64,000 nucleotides of DNA. Origin: a virus (Duplodnaviria; Caudoviricetes). Every line of letters begins with the position of its first letter. The stretch's first letter is position 1. The notes beneath the pieces were generated by a model, which was given only the letters and a program-made list of their open reading frames with translations, was not told where the DNA came from and searched no databases. The stretch lies in the IMG/VR virus record IMGVR_UViG_2706795957_000001, positions 1 to 64,000 of that record; one strand, given 5' to 3'. This document shows positions 45,208-57,101 of this stretch, in pieces. Position numbers and translations under genes: made by a program.

Positions 45208-46424
45208 TGCCCAACATGATCGCACCCAAGGTTCTCAACTACGCGTCGCATATCGACGACAACACCATCGAGCAGGCCGGCGAGATCTCGACGCTGCCGT
45301 TCATCCATCCGCACGTGGCGCTGATGCCGGATGCTCACAGCGGCAAGGGGTCCGCGGTCGGCACTGTGATCCCGACCGTCGATGCGGTGATCCCCGCGGC
45401 GGTCGGCGTCGACATCGGCTGCGGCATGATCGGCGTGCAGACAGTGGTGCAGAAGAGGGACATCTACGACCTGGACCTGGCCGACCTTCGTGCGCGTGTC
45501 GAGGAGGCTATCCCGCTGTCTCCGGGCAACTACAACAAGAATGCCCGGTGGGCCGGTCACACCGAGGAGCGCATCGCACGGCTCGAGGAGATGGCCGAGC
45601 AGAAGGGCGTCGACCTCAAGCACTCGCCGAAGTGGCGTGAACAGCTGGGCTCACTCGGCGGTGGCAACCACTTCATCGAACTATGTGAGCAGATCGAGGG
45701 TGACGGCACCGGATCGCTGTGGCTGTTCCTGCACTCCGGTAGCCGCGGTGTCGGCAACAAGATCGCGCAGAAGCACATCAAGATCGCACAGAAGCTGTGC
45801 AAGCGCTGGCACATCGAGCTCGCCAACCCCGACCTGGCCTACCTGGCGTCCGGGACCGACGAGTTCGGTGCCTACATCCGCGAGCTCCGGTGGGCCCAGG
45901 CGTTCGCGCTCGAGAACCGCGCCGAGATGATGGACCGCTTCCTCAAGGTGTTCACCGACTGGCTCGCCACTGATCTCGACGCCGCCCTCGAGTACGACGG
46001 CGTCGAGATCGAGGAACGTCGCATCAACTGCCACCACAACTACACCGAGCGTGTCGAGATCAACGGCAAGTCCGTGTGGCTCACTCGCAAGGGAGCGATC
46101 GACGCTTCGGCGGGCCGCTACGGACTCATCCCCGGATCCATGGGCACCAAGTCCTACGTGGTCTGTGGCAAGGGCAACGAGTCCGGCCTGAAGTCAGCAC
46201 CCCATGGTGCGGGGCGTCGGTTCTCGCGCACGAAGGCCAAGCAGTTGTTCACCCTCGATGACCTCGCCGACCGCATGCAGGGCATCGAGTACCGACATGG
46301 TGCCGAGTGGATCGATGAGATCCCCGACGCCTACAAGCCGATAGACCAGGTCATGGAGGATGCCCGAGACTTGGTGGAGGTCGAGGCGGTACTCAAGCAG
46401 CTGCTCAACGTGAAGGGGATTTGA
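45207..46424 (+). CDS. rtcB: RtcB-family RNA ligase
   Basis: MPDAH, GVDIGCGM, GGGNHFIE, HSGSRG, HHNY, PGSMG, HGAGR, DE.P.AYK. Confidence 0.95.
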   Translation: MPNMIAPKVLNYASHIDDNTIEQAGEISTLPFIHPHVALMPDAHSGKGSAVGTVIPTVDAVIPAAVGVDIGCGMIGVQTVVQKRDIYDLDLADLRARVEEAIPLSPGNYNKNARWAGHTEERIARLEEMAEQKGVDLKHSPKWREQLGSLGGGNHFIELCEQIEGDGTGSLWLFLHSGSRGVGNKIAQKHIKIAQKLCKRWHIELANPDLAYLASGTDEFGAYIRELRWAQAFALENRAEMMDRFLKVFTDWLATDLDAALEYDGVEIEERRINCHHNYTERVEINGKSVWLTRKGAIDASAGRYGLIPGSMGTKSYVVCGKGNESGLKSAPHGAGRRFSRTKAKQLFTLDDLADRMQGIEYRHGAEWIDEIPDAYKPIDQVMEDARDLVEVEAVLKQLLNVKGI

Positions 46425-46989: not shown

Positions 46990-48257
46990 ATGACCGACCC
47001 AGTCCAGGAAGCAGTCAGCCGCGCCATCGCGACGACCATCGACGAGGACAACACCGACAGCCTATTGGTGCTCGTCGCGCGCGAGGCACTCAAGCCGGTC
47101 CAGGAGGCTGTCGCCGAGGACATCACCGAGGCCTACGACGGCGAGGATGACACGTTCGTCGCTGGATTCAATGCCGCCCTCCGTTTGGTCCGGGAGTATG
47201 TCTAATGACCAGAGCAACAAAAGAGACACGGACCGTCACCCAGCACCGATTCATCTGTCCATGCGACTACGGCACAGGTGGAGACATCGGCACATTCCAG
47301 GACGCCATGAACTGGGCATACGCCAAGGCGGACGAGTTGGGGATCAAGACCACCACCGACGACTGGTGCCGGCTGTTCCCGGAAGACGACCAGATTGCGA
47401 TCGTGCTCGAGGAGGTGCGGAAGTGAGCTACAAGGTCACCCTGCGCGACCGCCTGGCGTGGCGACTGGCCAACTGGGCCCTCGTGGTCGCCACGCCCGAG
47501 TACCGCCTCTGGATCTCAACCCTCAACCGTCTGGGCTTCGAAGAGCTCCTCAGGCGGGACCTCGACGTCGAGCTCCACGAGTCAGGGAGCTGATATGGCT
47601 GAAATTGAAACCCCCTCGAGCCTTCGAGCCCAGGAAATCTCCGACGCACTTCGGGCTGCAGACCTGGCGCTCGCGGAGGCGGGAATGCACCTGCGGAAAG
47701 CCGTCACTCTCGCCGAAGCGGATTATGAGCACAATGACGAGAAGCCTCGCGATCTGCTCGCTGTGGCCAAGCTCCTCCGCGGCCTGACGTGTGTCGAATA
47801 CCTGAACTGGGATGGCTATGCCCGGGCAAGGAGGCAACGGTAATGGCTGAGAAATTCACATCGTTCCGTTACCAACTGTATGAGGTGTACGAGGAGGGGA
47901 CCGTTCCCGGTGTTGATTACCCGCTCTTCATCACATCCGATTACGAGACTGTCGATAAGCACATGTCGAAGTATCCGATGGACGCCTACTCGGTCCGCTG
48001 GTGGGTGAAGGCGGATTCGCGTGGATGACGATTTCCAACCCATCGCCGCGGCCACACAGTTCGAGGTTGGCAAGAAATACCGAATCCGCCTCGGCGATGA
48101 CGGGCCGATCTCGACAGCGTTTTGCACGGGCAGAACCGACGACACCATCACGTTCGTACCCGCTCGAGAGGGTGGCGACAACTACAGCATCATCCACGCC
48201 TATGGATTCGATGCCGCACGATTCCTATTCAATGAAGAGGAGAGCAATGAGCACTGA
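46990..48257 (+). other. Run of small coupled hypothetical genes (46990-47205, 47205-47426, 47423-47593, 47595-47843, 47843-48028, 48021-48257)
   Basis: Start/stop overlaps and SD motifs. Confidence 0.6.
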
Positions 48258-48471
48258 TGTACTCGAGCGCCCGGACGTCCGGGACTCTGACACCGACGAG
48301 CCCGAGAAGGTCGTCCACTACATCAAGCGGAACGAGATCCTCGAGAGTGTGGTCGACGGCAAGTTTGTCCGCACCCTGTGTGGCGAGATCCTTCAGGTAA
48401 CCAAGACTGCGAAGGACGGATCGCCCGTATGCGAGAGGTGCAAGGAGATCCACGCGGGGTTGCCGAAGTGA
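48247..48471 (+). CDS. DUF3039-like actinobacterial Zn-binding protein
   Basis: T.VLERP...HYI...I.ES.V.G..V..LCG...SPVC..CKEI. Confidence 0.7.
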   Translation: MSTDVLERPDVRDSDTDEPEKVVHYIKRNEILESVVDGKFVRTLCGEILQVTKTAKDGSPVCERCKEIHAGLPK

Positions 48472-48665
48472 GCGCATGCGAGGACTGCTGGAGTGACGCA
48501 TACGTCAAGTCCAGGATCCGCGGCACCTCTCAGGTCGACGAGTATCAGCGGCTAATCCAAGACCACGCCGGCGGGAACATCATCGACCCCGACGACGAGT
48601 TCTGGACGGGCTGCAGCGAGGACTGCGCACCGCATTGCATGTCGGATCACCGCGGCGAGCAGTAA
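48468..48665 (+). CDS. Small Cys-rich hypothetical protein
   Basis: GTGA overlap. Confidence 0.5.
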   Translation: MSACEDCWSDAYVKSRIRGTSQVDEYQRLIQDHAGGNIIDPDDEFWTGCSEDCAPHCMSDHRGEQ

Positions 48666-48678
48666 CCGACCGACACAG

Positions 48679-48713
48679 CGAGACCCCCCTACCAACTCGG
48701 TAGGGGGGTCTCG
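48679..48713. terminator. Bidirectional hairpin between the rightward operon and the tRNA
   Basis: 15-bp perfect stem. Confidence 0.75.
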
Positions 48714-48720
48714 TCGTCTG

Positions 48721-48795
48721 TGCCCTGGGTGGGGCTCGAACCCACGCATCTTCCGATTATGAGTCGGAGGCCTTCACCAACTTGGCTACCAGGGC
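48721..48795 (-). tRNA. tRNA with CAT anticodon (Ile2-like; Met possible)
   Basis: gccctgg/ccagggc acceptor; tccga-CTCATAA-tcgga; T loop TTCGAGC. Confidence 0.88.
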
Positions 48796-48848
48796 AGGCC
48801 TACTGTACACGATCCCGCGGCCTCCTCCAGATACCCCCGTAGGGTGTT

Positions 48849-49106
48849 TTACAGTGTTTCCCCAGGTGGATTTGACATTGCAGCAAATTTACAGGCACCG
48901 GTTCTCTAACGAGAGGCTAGACCGGTTCTGAACTGGGGATTCGTCTGTACGAGATTCTGGTTTGCGAAGGATTATGAGTTCATGGTACTCTGGCTGCATA
49001 CGCTGCGTATTTCTGTCAAATGCCCTGTTCAGAGTGTGTGCATGCATCTACTTGGACACACATATAATCGCATGAGATTGCAGGCATTTTTACAGGCTTT
49101 GCAGGC
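48849..49106. other. Putative attP with short core and arm-type repeats
   Basis: GATTATGAGT at 48970-48979 (same as the tRNA anticodon region); TTRCAGGC at 48889, 49078, 49090, 49099, variants at 48849, 48878. Confidence 0.65.
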
Positions 49107-49148
49107 ATCTTCCGGTACGGGTACCCCCCATGGGTAAAAGGAGTCACC

Positions 49149-50978: not shown

Positions 50979-50994
50979 GTAGTCAGAAAAAGGG

Positions 50995-51028
50995 GCAACC
51001 CCCGCCTAGTACGTCAGGCGGGGGTTGC
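50995..51028. terminator. Bidirectional terminator
   Basis: 13-bp stem with A-run on the left and T-rich right flank. Confidence 0.7.
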
Positions 51029-51411
51029 TTTCTTCATTTCCGGGGCCGTATTTGACATCCGAGATGAATGTCCGGATCAGTTCGTCGATGGCTTTTCGCT
51101 GCCGGCTGGTCAAGACTTCCGAACCCACCGGAGGCTCATAGGGGGGCTGTGCCGCATCCCAGGTCTCGCCAAGCCAGTCCAGGACCCTCTTGACGGAGAT
51201 CCCCAGGGCCTCCGCGACGCGCTCGAGGGTCTGCCTTTCAACGAGCCGCGGGTCGGCCTTGCCGGTGATGAGCCGGACGACGGTGGTGGTGTGCAGACCG
51301 GCTTCCTTGGCCAGAGCGGTTGAAGCTCGGGTCACCCGTCCGTGGATTGGTGAGACCCTGCTTCAGCATCGCTTTGGCCCAAGGCTGCGGTACTTCAGTG
51401 GTTTGTCTCAT
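51006..51411 (-). pseudogene. Immunity repressor (XRE HTH), apparently frameshifted by +1 nt
   Basis: N-terminus MRQTTEVPQPWAKAM...GDPSF and HTH ALAKEAGLHTTTVVRLI are in different frames; 406 nt = 3n+1. Confidence 0.65.
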
Positions 51412-51517: not shown

Positions 51518-51742
51518 GTGTCAGACATCAAGGTGGGCGACATCGTCACCATCGGTTCATGGGGTTACCGCTGGACGGTGACCGGTTTCAAGCTCTCGCC
51601 AGCTTCTGGGGGCCGTAAAGCCCTCCTCGCGCGAGATCAAGAGCACGGCTACCGCCGCGGTGACGTCGGCAAGAGCCGAGGGACGGCGACCATTCGGACC
51701 CGTGTAGCGGTCGATACATTGGTCAAGGAGGAGTCCAAGTGA
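51518..51742 (+). CDS. Hypothetical protein, first gene of the early rightward operon
   Basis: AGGAGG SD. Confidence 0.65.
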   Translation: MSDIKVGDIVTIGSWGYRWTVTGFKLSPASGGRKALLARDQEHGYRRGDVGKSRGTATIRTRVAVDTLVKEESK

Positions 51743-52776
51743 CAACCCCCTACGACCTCCTCGAGACCGGCGCCATCATCAATGGACGCGCGCAAGTCAT
51801 CGGCAAGTTCGCGAACGGATCACCCGAGTGGCACGCCGCGCGCCGCGGGCATGTCGGCGGGTCCGAGATCTCCGCGATCGTCGGCCTAAGCCCATTCGAG
51901 TCACGGTTCTCCCTCTGGCACCGCAAGAAGGGTGAACTCGAGGACGTCGAGGAGACCCCAGCCATGGAGTGGGGCACCCGCCTCGAGCCAGTCGTCTACG
52001 ACAAGTACGCCGAGGGTCTCGAAGAGGGTGAGTTCATCACCACCGGCCACACCTTCCGATGCCTGATCCCGGGGCGCGGCTGGATCAATGCCAACCCCGA
52101 CGGCATCGTCTGGGCGCAAACCGAAACCGGCGAGTGGTACATCCGTCGCATCCTCGAGATCAAGACCTCGGCCCGCGGCGAAGGCTACGGAGAGAACGGC
52201 AGCGACGGCATCCCGATCTACTACCGATGCCAAGTGCTGTTCTACATGTACTGCCTCGGCGTCAAGCAGGCCGAGCTGGCCGCGCTGATCTCCGGTGTCG
52301 ACTACCGCACCTACAAGGTCAACTACAGCACTGAAGACGTCGAGTTCCTCATGAACGCCGGCGACAAGTTCATGCACGACCTGAACAACAACGTCCTGCC
52401 CGACATCAGCAAGGATAGTACTACCTACGAGGCTGTCCGGCAGATCAACCCCGAGTTGGACCCGGACCTCGAAGTCGTCATCCCCACCGCACTGGGGGAG
52501 TACTACCGATCGATCGAGGAGGCCTACCGCGAGATCAAGGACCTGCGCTACGGCGTCCACGCAGACATTCTCGACCACGTCGGGTCCGCGCGCCTGATCA
52601 AGCTCGAGGACGGCGAGGTCCTGGCCCGCCGGCAGATGCCTGGCCGTGGCGACAAGCCATACCTGCGCTACGTGCCGCCCAAGAAGGCCGAGCAGGTGAG
52701 CGTCACGGACGCCTACGAGAAGGAGCAGGACCGGCAGGAACGCCTGGCCGCGATGTACGCGCCCGCATCTGTCTAG
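51739..52776 (+). CDS. RecE-like (YqaJ / lambda-exonuclease family) exonuclease
   Basis: EWH..RR..VGGSE, WG.RLE, ANPDG, LEIKT, YY.CQV..YM. Confidence 0.9.
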   Translation: MTTPYDLLETGAIINGRAQVIGKFANGSPEWHAARRGHVGGSEISAIVGLSPFESRFSLWHRKKGELEDVEETPAMEWGTRLEPVVYDKYAEGLEEGEFITTGHTFRCLIPGRGWINANPDGIVWAQTETGEWYIRRILEIKTSARGEGYGENGSDGIPIYYRCQVLFYMYCLGVKQAELAALISGVDYRTYKVNYSTEDVEFLMNAGDKFMHDLNNNVLPDISKDSTTYEAVRQINPELDPDLEVVIPTALGEYYRSIEEAYREIKDLRYGVHADILDHVGSARLIKLEDGEVLARRQMPGRGDKPYLRYVPPKKAEQVSVTDAYEKEQDRQERLAAMYAPASV

Positions 52777-52783
52777 TCTCTAG

Positions 52784-52812
52784 TTGACTCCAGCAGACAC
52801 ATGACGTAGGCT
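52784..52812 (+). promoter_or_regulatory. SigA-like promoter
   Basis: TTGACT-N17-TAGGCT. Confidence 0.75.
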
Positions 52813-52868
52813 GATGGAGTCAGACAGAGAGCGACAACGAACTGTCTAACCTCTAACTGAACAGAGAC

Positions 52869-53037
52869 TTGTGGTTGGTGGCGTCAAGCCCACCCCTTCT
52901 GGCACAAACCATCCCATTAATCACGGGGCTTACTACGCACGCCAGTTGGGGACGTAAGGACGCCCAGCACCCTTCCCCGGTGCTTGCGGGACTTCAGAGT
53001 TCCTTCAGCTCGACGGCTCCTGCGCCACCAGCCACAA
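52869..53037 (+). ncRNA. Structured element copy A (unknown family)
   Basis: 15-bp closing stem; core TCAAGC / GTAAGGACGCCC / GCTCGACGGCTCCTG. Confidence 0.75.
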
Positions 53038-53045
53038 CAACACTT

Positions 53046-53254
53046 GCGACGCCGGCGTCAAGCGCGCCCCTCGGAGTGCATCCTGTCCCTTTCCAGGATG
53101 CAGGGTCTAGCATGCCCACCTCCGCTCCGACCGGGAAGTAAGGACGCCCGACGGTTGAGCCCTGCGGTTCTCCCCAACGAGTTGGCGCTCGTTGAACCAC
53201 CGCTCCCGTCTGCAGACCACAACATCTGCTCGACGGCTCCTGCGCCGGCGTCGC
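53046..53254 (+). ncRNA. Structured element copy B (unknown family)
   Basis: 12-bp closing stem of different sequence; same three core blocks. Confidence 0.75.
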
Positions 53255-53263
53255 CACAACCCC

Positions 53264-53294
53264 CACATGAGGTCCGAGTACCGCGAAGCGGATT
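53264..53294 (+). repeat. Intergenic motif copy 1
   Basis: cacatgaggtccgagtaccgcgaagcggatt. Confidence 0.85.
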
Positions 53295-53352
53295 GAACTA
53301 TCCGGAAATACCAGACAGTTCAAAACACAAGAGAGAAGAGGAGATACAACAC

Positions 53353-53541
53353 ATGGCACGAATCAATCAGAAAACGCTGGACAGCATCAACACGGCGTTC
53401 GAGAACATGGGCCGCGAGATCGACGGGCTGTGGAACTCGATCAACCAGGTCAAGGGAAAGTTGGAAGAGCAGCCATCCGATGTCCGGATCACCGAGACCC
53501 CGTCGGTGCAAGCCGCCAAGGGCGAGGGGGCCTCGGAATGA
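53353..53541 (+). CDS. Small coiled-coil hypothetical protein
   Basis: GAGGAG SD. Confidence 0.6.
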   Translation: MARINQKTLDSINTAFENMGREIDGLWNSINQVKGKLEEQPSDVRITETPSVQAAKGEGASE

Positions 53542-54050
53542 TCAAGCCGCCATTCCAGCTCGCCACGTTCTTCAACACTGGCGAGGATGACCCCTACGGC
53601 TGCGTCATGAACGTCGTCGCCTGGCTCGCGGGCGAACCGACAACCGCCGAACCGGCCTGCACCAACTGGCATTTGACCAGCCTGGCCCAGACGTTCAATG
53701 ACAAGCTGCTCATGAAGTTCGCTCCCCACACCCGGGAGTTCGGCACCAACATCGACGGCACGGTACGCATGGTCGGCGTCGCCACCCCGGAGCAGGCAAC
53801 CCGGATGCTCGAGGTTGCAGAGATGCTCGTCAACACCTCCGTGGTCAAACGGCAGGACAGCATACCGTGGCTCCGATCGGTCACCGCGCTGTATGCACCC
53901 AACAAGATGGGCAGCCATGGGCTGGCTACGGCCATCGTCGATGACGCCGACACCTTCGACGAAGCGGTGACCAGCATGCTGATCATCCTCGAGGACTTCC
54001 ACAGCACCTTCGCTGACCAACTCACCCCCAAGGAGCAGGCACTTGTCTGA
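53538..54050 (+). CDS. Hypothetical protein
   Basis: GCVMNVVAWLAGE...PAC...ND motif. Confidence 0.65.
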   Translation: MIKPPFQLATFFNTGEDDPYGCVMNVVAWLAGEPTTAEPACTNWHLTSLAQTFNDKLLMKFAPHTREFGTNIDGTVRMVGVATPEQATRMLEVAEMLVNTSVVKRQDSIPWLRSVTALYAPNKMGSHGLATAIVDDADTFDEAVTSMLIILEDFHSTFADQLTPKEQALV

Positions 54051-54768
54051 ACTGCAACAGGCCGCACAGGGCCAGGCGGACGCCGGCCCAGTCCAGGTCA
54101 TCTACAGCCACGCCAAGGAGATCCAGAACGTGCTCGCCAAGGGCACCGACATGGACCGCTGGCTGCAGATGGCCCGACTCGCCGTCATGCGTGACCCCAA
54201 CCTCGTCAACGCCGCCAAGCGCGACCCCGGCTCGCTCATGCAGGCCATGCTCGACTGCGCCGAGAAGGGACACATCCCCGGCACCGAGGACTACTACCTC
54301 GTGCCGCGCAAGGGTGGCATCCAGGGCATGGAGTCCTGGAAGGGAATCGCCAAGCGCATCATGCGTTCTGGCCGCTACCAGTCCATCGTCGCCGAGGTCG
54401 TCTACGAGGGCGAGGACTTCGACTTCAACCCCAACACCATGGACCGACCCGTCCATCAGATCAAGTACATGGCGCGCACCTCCGGACAGCCCGTCCTGTC
54501 CTACGCCTACGCGGTCGACCACGAAGGTAAGCCGTCCACCATCGCAGTCGCCGACCCTCGCTACATCGCCAAGGTCAAGGCCAACTCCAAGGGCACCGTC
54601 TGGGCCGACTGGGATGAGGCGATGTACAAGAAGACCGCGGTCAAGATGCTCGTGGACTACGTCGACACCTCCTCGACCGACCGTCGTGGTGTGTCTACCG
54701 TCCAGGTAGACGGACCGGTCGGAACCTTCATCGACGGCGTTCTCGAGATCGAAGGGGGCGACCAGTGA
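54043..54768 (+). CDS. recT: RecT-like ssDNA annealing protein
   Basis: YYLVPR, SWKG...RSG, VVYEGEDF, W..W.AM.KKTAVK. Confidence 0.9.
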   Translation: MSELQQAAQGQADAGPVQVIYSHAKEIQNVLAKGTDMDRWLQMARLAVMRDPNLVNAAKRDPGSLMQAMLDCAEKGHIPGTEDYYLVPRKGGIQGMESWKGIAKRIMRSGRYQSIVAEVVYEGEDFDFNPNTMDRPVHQIKYMARTSGQPVLSYAYAVDHEGKPSTIAVADPRYIAKVKANSKGTVWADWDEAMYKKTAVKMLVDYVDTSSTDRRGVSTVQVDGPVGTFIDGVLEIEGGDQ

Positions 54769-54983
54769 GCGACCACGAGATCATCCGCTCCGTCCAGTTC
54801 AGCGACGGCACCAACATCCTTCGCGTTGCGGTCGACGGACACTTCGCCGAGTTCGGAATCGGTGAAAAGTATGTCTTCGTCCCCATTGAGAAGTTGGACG
54901 AGTTTGCCGACGAGCTCAAGAAGATCGCGCCGAAAAAGGCGACGCTCGCCACCCGGGACACGATGCAGGTGATGGGTCGATGA
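54765..54983 (+). CDS. Hypothetical protein
   Basis: Coupled ORF. Confidence 0.6.
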   Translation: MSDHEIIRSVQFSDGTNILRVAVDGHFAEFGIGEKYVFVPIEKLDEFADELKKIAPKKATLATRDTMQVMGR

Positions 54984-55717
54984 CCATCCAGGTTCGCGTA
55001 ATCTCCTCGCCCACAGTCACCCTCGCCGGGTTCACCATGATCACCCAGACGGTCCGAGAGAAGCTCGGCGCCGGCGACTCTGGGTCGATGGCGCAGTTCC
55101 TCGCCGAGTTCGGCGGTCGGGTCTGCTACCAGAGCTGGGACAAGCCCAACCCGAAGACGGCCACCAACCAGGGCTACATCGAGAACATCCAGGAGCAGCG
55201 CCACTTCAGCGTGCTCGAGCACAGCTCGGCCAGCTTCTACATCGAAGGTGTCTCCCGGTCGCTCACCCACGAGTTGGTGCGCCACCGCCACTTCTCGTAC
55301 TCGCAACTGTCGCAGCGCTACGTCGACTCCAGCGATGTCGCGTTCGTGCTGCCGCCGGCCTACGAGGGTGACGACTGGGCGACGAAGGTGTTCGTCGAAG
55401 GCCGCGCCCGGGACCTGCGGGACTACGCCGAGCTCGAGGAGCACCAGAAGTCCAAGGGGCTCAACAAGAAGCAGGCCCGAGAGTCTGCCCGGTCGGAGCT
55501 GCCCAACAGCACCGAGACCAAGATCCTCGTCACCGGCAACCTGCGCGCATGGATGGAATTCCTCATCAAGCGTGACAATCCCGCCGCCGACGCCGAGATC
55601 CGCCGCCTGGCCAAGGAGCTCCGCGAGCACCTCATCTTCATCGCACCAGATGTCTTCGGTGACACTGCCCGCAAGCTCTGGGACGACTCGTTCGCCCAAC
55701 GCGAGGCGCGCGCCTGA
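54980..55717 (+). CDS. thyX: Flavin-dependent thymidylate synthase
   Basis: RHRHFSYSQLSQRY signature; H.SVLEH; GNLRAW. Confidence 0.95.
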   Translation: MTIQVRVISSPTVTLAGFTMITQTVREKLGAGDSGSMAQFLAEFGGRVCYQSWDKPNPKTATNQGYIENIQEQRHFSVLEHSSASFYIEGVSRSLTHELVRHRHFSYSQLSQRYVDSSDVAFVLPPAYEGDDWATKVFVEGRARDLRDYAELEEHQKSKGLNKKQARESARSELPNSTETKILVTGNLRAWMEFLIKRDNPAADAEIRRLAKELREHLIFIAPDVFGDTARKLWDDSFAQREARA

Positions 55718-55723
55718 GACCCG

Positions 55724-55753
55724 ACGGCCTCGCTGGGAAACCGGCGAGGCCGT
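55724..55753 (+). terminator. GAAA-capped hairpin after thyX
   Basis: 13-bp stem. Confidence 0.6.
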
Positions 55754-55762
55754 TCTCACATC

Positions 55763-55793
55763 CACATGAGGTCCGAGTGCCGCGAAGCGGATT
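55763..55793 (+). repeat. Intergenic motif copy 2
   Basis: cacatgaggtccgagtgccgcgaagcggatt. Confidence 0.85.
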
Positions 55794-56616: not shown

Positions 56617-57033
56617 GTGAGCAACGAAGCAGAAGTCCACTACAAGAAGGCATCTCGGTGGCTCAAGAAGGCCGATAGGGAACGGGACTACGCTGCAACG
56701 GCAGCGCTCCCTGAGGGGCACTGTAAGCGTGCTGTCGAGTACGAGCAGCGAGCTCAGGTGCATGCACTCATGTCCATCGCTGCATCGGGTCTACCGATCA
56801 GCGTCACGGCCACTTCGACGCTTGACTAACGACCCGGGAGACGTCTAATGTCTAACCCATCACAAGAGTGTGATTTCGCCACCCTGTTCGAGGCATGCAA
56901 CAGCCAAGCCGAGTATGAGGTCACCTACCGATGGTGGGGGCGGAAAACCTTCTGCGCCAGTCACTTCCGTGAGATGAAGGTCGACGGCGACAAGCATGTA
57001 CTAAGTGTAACCGCCGCGGCGCCCCAGGCATGA
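56617..57033 (+). other. Two small hypothetical genes (56617-56829, 56848-57033)
   Basis: SD motifs. Confidence 0.5.
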
Positions 57034-57057
57034 GGTCCGAGCGCCGCGGAGCGGATT
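57029..57057 (+). repeat. Intergenic motif copy 3
   Basis: catgaggtccgagcgccgcggagcggatt. Confidence 0.85.
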
Positions 57058-57101
57058 GACACACACAACACACCACAACACGACAGGGAGGTCGCAAACA
57101 C

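Follow-up and report, generated by a model that had tools for sequence, protein, structure and literature searches.

The stretch of DNA analyzed here (the window) comprises positions 1 to 64,000 of IMG/VR virus record IMGVR_UViG_2706795957_000001, a phage record of 93,577 base pairs (bp). Its nearest public relative in the region of interest is the Gordonia phage BrutonGaster (Oneupvirus, subcluster CQ2), with 86% identity. Downstream of the gene for a YqaJ/RecE-like exonuclease (51739-52776), we found a noncoding gap of 576 bp (52777-53352) that holds a predicted promoter and two structured units, A and B, for which we propose the name cluster CQ leader RNA. The initial annotation of this DNA, made from the sequence alone, had described an RNA between recE and recT in a gap of ~575 bp. 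The gap after the RecE-like gene was indeed there, with an exact size of 576 bp. However, recT is not the next gene, as two open reading frames (ORFs; 53353-53541 and 53538-54050) intervene between the RNA and recT.

Two units share an invariant core and a predicted fold

Unit A (52869-53037, plus strand) is 169 nucleotides (nt) long and is closed by a 15-bp helix, P1 (52869-52883 with 53023-53037). Inside this stem follow the junction strand J1/2 UCAAGCCCA (52884-52892), the P2 arm (52893-52951), J2/3 ACGUA (52952-52956) and helix P3 with a bulged C (52957-52964 with 53015-53021), within which lie the P4 hairpin (52966-52984), P5 (52986-53009) and J5/3 UCGAC (53010-53014). A CA-rich linker, CAACACUU (53038-53045, plus strand), separates unit A from unit B (53046-53254, plus strand, 209 nt). 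Unit B has the same order of parts, with a P1 of 12 bp (53046-53057 with 53243-53254), J1/2 UCAAGCGCG (53058-53066), a P2 arm (53067-53135), J2/3 AAGUA (53136-53140), a P3 again carrying a bulged C (53141-53148 with 53235-53241), a P4 arm (53150-53210), P5 (53212-53229) and J5/3 UCGAC (53230-53234). Both long closing stems were thus found where the initial annotation had put them. Measured against dinucleotide shuffles, the minimum free energy of folding gave z = -4.9 for unit A and z = -4.4 for unit B.

The three blocks said to be common to the units, GGCG-TCAAGC, GTAAGGACGCCC and GCTCGACGGCTCCTG-CGCC, are each exact in both. Elsewhere in the window, GTAAGGACGCCC and GCTCGACGGCTCCTG-CGCC, the core blocks of 12 and 15 nt, have zero copies, and GTAAGGACGCCC occurs only at these two places in the 93.6-kilobase (kb) genome. 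Blocks 2 and 3 had been proposed to pair as AGGA(C)GCC/GGCTCCT with a bulged C; this pairing is helix P3, is seen in both units and covaries (see below). Unrelated hairpins do stand at matching positions, with CTGGC/GCCAG versus TCGGAG/CTCCGA in P2 and AGCACC/GGTGCT versus GACGG/CCGTC in P4, and the C/U-rich segments CUUCCCC and UCCCUUUC that had drawn attention fall in predicted hairpin loops. Between the paralogous units A and B, ~45 nt are invariant, and the arms have diverged beyond alignment.

A common structure was derived by hand from the seven single-copy units of Smoothievirus phages that are listed below. P1, a GC-rich clamp of 12-15 bp, joins the 5' and 3' ends of each unit. It leads into a first three-way junction (P1/P2/P3), and the 7-bp P3 opens a second one (P3/P4/P5). 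J1/2 reads UCAAGCNCR in the single-copy units and UCAARCNCR across units, P2 consists of a CCC/GGG base with a variable arm, and J2/3 is ANGYA. P3 (AGGNGCC/GGCNCCU) is followed by J3/4, which is one or two pyrimidines, by a variable and at times branched P4, by a single U, and by P5, which has a GC...GC base and a variable top. J5/3 is UCGAM, and one G joins P3 to the 3' strand of P1. The invariant nucleotides sit mostly in the junctions: they are the junction strands (UCAARCNCR, ANGYA, UCGAM and the single G) together with the adjoining helix ends. Farther out, P2, P4 and P5 differ freely among units in both sequence and length, with pairing retained.

Strong selection acts on these ~45 core nucleotides. 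The core is unchanged between paralogues while the neighboring proteins diverge across subclusters to 77% (RecE) and 45% (170-amino-acid [aa] ORF product) identity. In the second unit of the uncultured relative described below (contig L135, 3860-3900; contigs L324, L325 and L327), we observed a 16-nt tandem duplication, CAACAGGATAGATCCA, in P4 in three of four independently assembled contigs; arm length is thus still changing inside a single population while the core stays fixed.

Other pairings were considered for the core. RNAalifold, run on a MAFFT alignment, put an alternative AGCY/GGCU helix in place of P3, but this helix is broken by the phage WilliamBoone and P3 covaries. A pseudoknot UCAAGC/GCUCGA could form five of its six pairs, all of them invariant. 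It would compete with the base of P5, and the sole variant, UCAAAC in unit B' of the uncultured relative, disrupts it. This pseudoknot is therefore a possible but unsupported part of the fold.

Covariation supports an RNA that folds on the transcribed strand

A search with a covariance model recovered the family in the phage and its relatives. The initial annotation had suggested a model of A and B; the one used here was built only from the seven single-copy Smoothievirus units, and the window units were left out. It scored unit A at 52.2 bits (E = 1.6e-8) and unit B at 68.9 bits (E = 8.4e-12), and it also recovered the pairs of units in BrutonGaster and in the uncultured relative. No further match above ~12 bits was obtained in the window or in the full genome. 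Their recovery by a model built without them is independent evidence for a single family to which A and B truly belong. P1 of unit B matches P1 of the single Smoothievirus unit, which identifies unit B as its orthologue. Orthologues of unit A, present in BrutonGaster and in the uncultured relative, show compensatory changes.

Base pairs were then counted over 13 distinct units from 10 genomes; three further metagenome contigs also carry the element. In this alignment, which was fitted to the model structure and leans towards it (6 of the 13 units are not in the model), standard pairs made up 95.8% of 598 pair cells, compared to 82.5% in shuffles and 39-50% when the partners were slid by 1-3 columns. 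Changes on both sides were seen in 28 of 50 pairs, versus 14.1 +/- 2.1 in shuffles, and none of 500 shuffles reached 28. The proposed pairing is hence accompanied by covariation beyond that of shuffled alignments, and compensatory change was observed in all helices, the sole exception being the 3-bp base of P2, which is invariant. For example, as the fourth base pair of P3 most units have A-U and WilliamBoone has G-C; in the uncultured relative, unit A' has U-A and unit B' has G-U.

The strand could be assigned as well. G-U or U-G pairs filled 35 cells, versus 2 for A-C or C-A, and the reverse strand scored only 10-19 bits with the model, versus 73-166 bits for the forward strand. The G-U excess and the low scores of the reverse complement indicate that the fold forms on the plus strand, which is the sense strand of the operon. 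An RNA-type element folding on the transcribed strand, as initially annotated, is therefore supported by both covariation and G-U asymmetry.

Reading frames, synteny and covariation argue against a protein gene or a DNA element

Some GenBank records carry annotated ORFs at this place, and the closing stems resemble terminal inverted repeats. The locus could accordingly be read not as RNA but as a small protein gene, as a miniature inverted-repeat transposable element (MITE)-like element with terminal inverted repeats, or as a cluster of DNA palindromes. The coding sequences annotated over the RNA are BrutonGaster gp72 (locus L003, 1809-2078, minus strand), ClubL gp88 (L004, 1779-1937, plus strand) and Bachita gp90 (L127, 1720-1878, plus strand). 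These ORFs disagree in strand among records and are absent in most relatives, and frame-breaking indels are common: of the 11 indels that distinguish the window from BrutonGaster, 9 have lengths that are not multiples of 3, and the units of close CQ1 relatives are separated by single-nt indels. On four metagenome contigs, the gap has no called gene. Comparison among relatives revealed no conserved reading frame, a result in keeping with the initial annotation, and the hypothetical-protein coding sequences over the RNA are probably mis-annotations.

A MITE or an element like the mycobacteriophage mobile element (MPME) was also rejected, as each genome has just one, syntenic locus and covariation extends past the termini into the internal helices P2-P5, with G-U pairs within the would-be repeats. 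Moreover, none was found in seven other Gordonia phage genera, and an excess of 35 G-U over 2 A-C cells is unexpected of duplex DNA signals. Taken as a whole, a non-RNA reading is the least probable of those that we considered. A role of the plus strand as folded single-stranded DNA is less parsimonious, since the promoter is conserved and the units are oriented like the operon.

Only cluster CQ Gordonia phages and an uncultured relative appear to carry the family

OneUp and BrutonGaster belong to subcluster CQ2, and Bachita, ClubL and Smoothie belong to CQ1; all are temperate and have Gordonia terrae as their host (PMC6426606, PMC10865867). When the region was compared by blastn with 50,697 phage records, only 20 records were matched, all of them from cluster CQ Gordonia phages, and the same search with unit A matched BrutonGaster only. 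Two units are present in BrutonGaster, and a single unit of 158-161 nt is present in seven Smoothievirus phages (ClubL, Miskis, Smoothie, Abscondus, Bachita, Culver and WilliamBoone). The uncultured relative, which was assembled independently in four metagenome samples and whose RecE is 77% identical, has two units. The locus is always the same in all carriers, with one or two copies.

An exact-block scan of IMG/VR returned only BrutonGaster, Cucurbita and one metagenome contig, and such scans of 185,579 prokaryote genomes (one per species) and of JGI metagenomes gave chance matches in GC-rich DNA that were negative with the covariance model. The model detected none in 151 genomes sampled from the order of an Amycolatopsis genome that had given a chance match, a set intended to cover relatives of Gordonia; this was a weak test in which only 19 candidates per genome were scored. 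It had no match on phage contigs with a 47-60% identical RecE, including JonJames, and none in seven complete Gordonia terrae phage genomes of other genera, for which the Smoothie and BrutonGaster controls scored as expected. Thus, the family looks confined to cluster CQ Gordonia phages (Oneupvirus and Smoothievirus) and one uncultured relative.

The features by which we propose to define the cluster CQ leader RNA were all found: a P1 clamp and two three-way junctions stacked on each other, junction strands that are invariant, arms that covary, and a locus that is fixed behind a RecE-like gene. The constant scaffold with variable arms that had been described from A and B alone holds across the 13 units, in the form of an invariant core with covarying arms.

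The RNA very probably represents a new family and fold

The Rfam 15 set (4227 models) includes tRNA, transfer-messenger RNA (tmRNA), 6S, 6C, Ms1, Y RNA, C4 and the known riboswitches and ribozymes. No model matched the units at the gathering threshold in a search of the whole window or at E values up to 10 in 52700-53400, and none matched at E values up to 1 in four homologous loci. A match to mir-929 that appeared at permissive E values was spurious and corresponded to the promoter palindrome. ARAGORN detected no tRNA or tmRNA in 52700-53400. The view that the element belongs to no described family was thus upheld both for the window and for the four homologous loci. Judged by sequence comparison, this is very probably a previously undescribed structured RNA family, new at the level of both family and fold. 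Its mechanism may still prove familiar in kind.

The closest analogue by position comes from Cluster A mycobacteriophages, in which ~500 nt from the early promoter Pleft up to the first gene give rise to the most abundant RNAs of the infection, which are very stable and processed; the Pleft transcripts are processed to species of 100-400 nt whose function is unknown (PMC5712189). Both cases concern temperate actinobacteriophages with ~500 nt of noncoding DNA between an early promoter and the first gene. Unlike the Gordonia locus, that of Cluster A lies at the end of the genome, and no similarity in sequence or structure was detected between the two. With filters off, the covariance model reached at most 7.9 bits on L5 (50500-52297) and D29 (47300-49127), so that the Cluster A RNAs are analogues by position only.

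The bacterial Y RNAs YrlA and YrlB also occur in tandem, are end-paired in a long stem with a protein-binding site and are found in some actinophages; in addition, the Gordonia phage has an RtcB gene. However, it has no Ro partner gene, no tRNA-like module by ARAGORN and no match to a Y RNA model. Indeed, a Ro/TROVE gene (PF05731) was absent from the 93.6-kb genome, in a search in which positive controls were matched.

Constant scaffolds with variable loops are known from the c4 RNAs of P1 and P7 and the CI RNA of P4 (the C4 antisense family of Rfam), which likewise have a closing stem, lie in a phage operon leader and are excised. These RNAs are ~70-80 nt long and cloverleaf-like, with loops that pair just downstream, unlike the Gordonia units of 160-215 nt. 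Along such lines, and with the actinobacterial 6C RNA, P1 c4 and P4 CI RNAs cut from an operon leader as parallels, the units might be base-pairing regulatory RNAs or mimics of the 16S rRNA tail, with C/U-rich loops that bind Shine-Dalgarno (SD) regions or decoy factors or toxins directed at the CCUCCUUUCU 3' end of 16S rRNA. A C/U-rich hairpin loop is present in 12 of the 13 units (CUUCCCC, UCCCUUUC and GUUCCUUUCG, for example). In B-type units, both of CQ1 phages and of the uncultured relative, the core of the P5 loop is always CCUUUC although the P5 stem covaries; this sequence is identical to part of the actinobacterial 16S 3' tail. Nevertheless, the C/U-rich loop sits in a differing arm by unit (P5, P4 or P2), a small RNA that pairs through a seed needs no invariant junction core, and the Rfam C4 and 6C models gave no match. 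In a crude test over 10 genomes, the best duplexes between loops and the downstream leader were weak (-7 to -12 kcal/mol), and cognate pairs were not better than noncognate ones. We consider this mechanism improbable. The guide RNA role offered in the initial annotation finds no support either, given this crude test and the fact that the arms differ among phages sharing one host strain while the core is constant. Since the arms vary on the same host and the core is fixed, the arms do not appear to be guides, and the binding of a factor is favored.

Tandem riboswitches such as the glycine riboswitch and the self-cleaving ribozymes of phages likewise combine conserved junction nucleotides, variable stems, tandem copies and a position in the 5' untranslated region. 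A new class of aptamer (as a tandem riboswitch) or of self-cleaving ribozyme would fit invariant nucleotides that cluster in multihelix junctions with peripheral stems of variable length, which is the usual signature of both kinds. The RtcB of this phage (45273-46418) acts on 2',3'-cyclic phosphate and 5'-OH ends, as made by ribozymes, and the conserved ACUU just 5' of each P1 is a possible cleavage site. In contrast to tandem riboswitches, however, the units have no recognizable expression platform and a very long and stable P1, whose perfect, GC-rich 12-15 bp are not plausibly ligand-switchable. We found no consistent terminator or SD-sequestering alternative structure, and the SD sequence lies ~85 nt downstream, beyond other conserved hairpins. 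The downstream genes point to no ligand, and no known model matches at E values up to 10. This makes an aptamer or ribozyme unlikely, though slightly less so than base pairing. Put more broadly, the double-junction core might constitute an RNA class of its own, be it a self-cleaving ribozyme, a polymerase-modifying antiterminator or an aptamer for a host factor or a metabolite, and this wider proposal strikes us as doubtful but less so than the aptamer or ribozyme alone. In its ribozyme form, the early transcript would be self-processed, and RtcB could religate or circularize the ends. Whichever form holds, the class would for now be restricted to a single phage lineage.

A conserved promoter and flanking signals surround the units

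The units are preceded by a predicted SigA-type promoter (52784-52812, plus strand), with a -35 element TTGACT (52784-52789), a 17-nt spacer and a -10 element TAGGCT (52807-52812). Both hexamers were read where the initial annotation had placed them, and they match TTGAC(T/G) and TANNNT in all relatives, with differing spacer bases. A generic scan missed this promoter because TAGGCT is identical to TATAAT at only 3 of 6 positions. Transcription is predicted to start at ~52819-52821. The promoter is bracketed by an 8-bp inverted repeat (52785-52822), with half-sites TGACTCCA (52785-52792) and TGGAGTCA (52815-52822), of which GACTCC...GGAGT is retained in relatives. This repeat is a candidate operator; no second copy of the half-site was found at the divergent early promoter. 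The ~50 nt of leader ahead of unit A comprise a small predicted 5' hairpin, GACAG...CUGUC (52823-52846, plus strand), with comparable hairpins in relatives, and then a conserved stretch, CUAACCUCUAACUG...ACUU. The ACUU is found directly 5' of P1 in every unit.

Behind the units, and separate from them, lies a 32-nt motif, AUGAGGUCCGAG-UA-CCGC-GAA-GCGG-AUUGAAC (53267-53298, plus strand), with C/A-rich sequence on both sides. It is retained downstream of the RNA in all CQ relatives. In the window, this motif of 28-32 nt has three plus-strand copies (53267-53298, 55766-55793 and 57030-57059) with the consensus AUGAGGUCCGAG-YR-CCGC-G(A/G)A-GCGG-AUU. Each copy stands 25-60 nt ahead of a start codon and begins with an AUG-led mini-frame, MRSE(Y/C/R)R(E/G)AD, that lacks an SD sequence. 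The motif could be a nut/rut-like or an RNA-processing site. No terminator-like site was found on the plus strand between unit B and the gene at 53353-53541, and the rightward operon behind the RNA extends over >25 kb. A strong hairpin without a U-tract, a candidate terminator, follows thyX (55724-55753), and the motif copy at 55766 comes after it.

These signals bear on a role in cis. The putL and putR elements of HK022 and the Bacillus EAR element are also cis-encoded folded RNAs, placed just after a promoter or in a long operon, and HK022 has two paralogous copies. In the same manner, the Gordonia units could act from the leader on their own transcript or on the polymerase that makes it, as a processive antiterminator (as do HK022 put and B. 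subtilis EAR) or as a 5' stabilizer that shields the early mRNA from RNase J/E. In every carrier genome the RNA is directly behind the conserved promoter and ahead of the >25-kb operon, there is no terminator between units and genes, and the hairpin at 55724-55753 might be a terminator that has to be read through. The one or two paralogous copies recall putL/putR, and the early leaders of Cluster A are unusually stable (PMC5712189). On the other hand, put (~70 nt) and EAR (~120 nt) are much smaller and have other folds, with no Rfam match to the units, and the repeated hairpin motif (53267, 55766 and 57030) is a better nut-like candidate. A plain stabilizer needs no ~45 invariant nucleotides, and ~50 nt of leader stand ahead of unit A. 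We therefore regard a purely cis-acting leader as unlikely, yet as the strongest single competitor to the binding of a factor.

A strong promoter followed by ~540 nt of structured noncoding transcript with C-rich tracts, among recombination genes, could also suggest the primer or R-loop RNA of a transcription-dependent origin, similar to ColE1 RNA II, T4 oriF/oriG or the RNA-based origins proposed in actinophages, i.e., in non-RepA Cluster A prophages (PMC7157519). However, the annotation of the close relative BrutonGaster places a replication initiation protein, a primase/helicase and SSB 5-14 kb downstream, which points to a protein-initiated origin elsewhere. In addition, there is no AT-rich unwinding element, and covariation keeps a compact RNA fold rather than the potential for an RNA-DNA hybrid. 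An origin RNA is thus very improbable.

Genes around the RNA

In the local gene order, a repressor gene on the minus strand comes first and is followed by a small ORF and the RecE-like gene. The first gene past the RNA (53353-53541, plus strand) encodes 62 aa, is preceded by the SD sequence GAGGAG (53338-53343, plus strand) and has no family in PHROGs; its counterparts in relatives encode 93-117 aa. Next are the 170-aa ORF (53538-54050; phrog_13065, function unknown), the RecT gene (54043-54768), a small ORF and the ThyX gene (54980-55717). The homologue of the 170-aa ORF in Abscondus, gp89 (locus L126, 2149-2673), is labeled "tyrosine integrase" in that phage alone, and the window protein did not match integrase families. 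On the downstream side of the leftward repressor gene lies a perfect hairpin (50992-51031), 14-16 bp long and rich in GC, that has T-runs on either strand and looks like a bidirectional terminator.

The RtcB RNA ligase gene of the window (45273-46418) is full length and scored 369.5 bits. Its BrutonGaster homologue is annotated as a tRNA splicing ligase, and a nucleotidyltransferase is also listed there. Five tRNA genes are present in the window. RtcB, the nucleotidyltransferase annotation in BrutonGaster and the five tRNA genes together suggest that, when host nucleases damage RNAs, the phage repairs or replaces them.

Discussion

The best explanation that we can offer is that an end-clamped, stable RNA in the leader presents a core that binds a conserved host or phage factor. 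For this statement as a whole, mechanism included, we estimate a probability of roughly 45%. The units would be transcribed from the conserved promoter ~50 nt upstream, as the leader of the long operon that runs rightward from the small ORFs through recT and thyX, and they would be made together with the mRNA, as there is no terminator between the units and the next gene. The GC-rich P1 clamp would hide both ends, so that the units would probably persist as stable RNA modules, perhaps after being cut out at the CA-rich linkers. The invariant junction core would be the functional surface, binding a protein, RNA polymerase or the ribosome, and the presence of one or two copies would have a dosage effect. 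That this core binds a conserved factor, so that the RNA serves as decoy, sponge or scaffold rather than as a guide that acts by base pairing, is a tentative proposal with somewhat less than an even chance of being right. A precedent for such an RNA is provided by the abundant and stable early noncoding RNAs of Cluster A (PMC5712189).

Several points weigh against this explanation. The alignment used for the pair counts is biased towards the model structure. The phylogeny is narrow, and part of the invariance may thus reflect recent common descent; the divergence of the paralogues A and B nevertheless argues against recent descent as the cause of core invariance. The fixed position after the promoter and ahead of the operon fits a role in cis equally well, and invariant helix and junction bases are also typical of ribozymes and aptamers.

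Complex folds with so many invariant junction nucleotides usually prove to be ribozymes, aptamers or specific protein-binding platforms, and few such RNAs are known from actinobacteriophages. The system lends itself to experiments: G. terrae 3612, the host, is in culture along with several carrier phages, methods for phage engineering exist for such hosts, and there are natural variants with one and two copies. For genome annotation, the hypothetical proteins that GenBank lists over this RNA are probably wrong. As the RNA stands at the start of an operon for recombination and nucleotide metabolism in a temperate phage, it could reveal a new form of control of early expression or of neutralization of a host factor, and it may shed light on the unexplained abundant early noncoding RNAs of mycobacteriophages.

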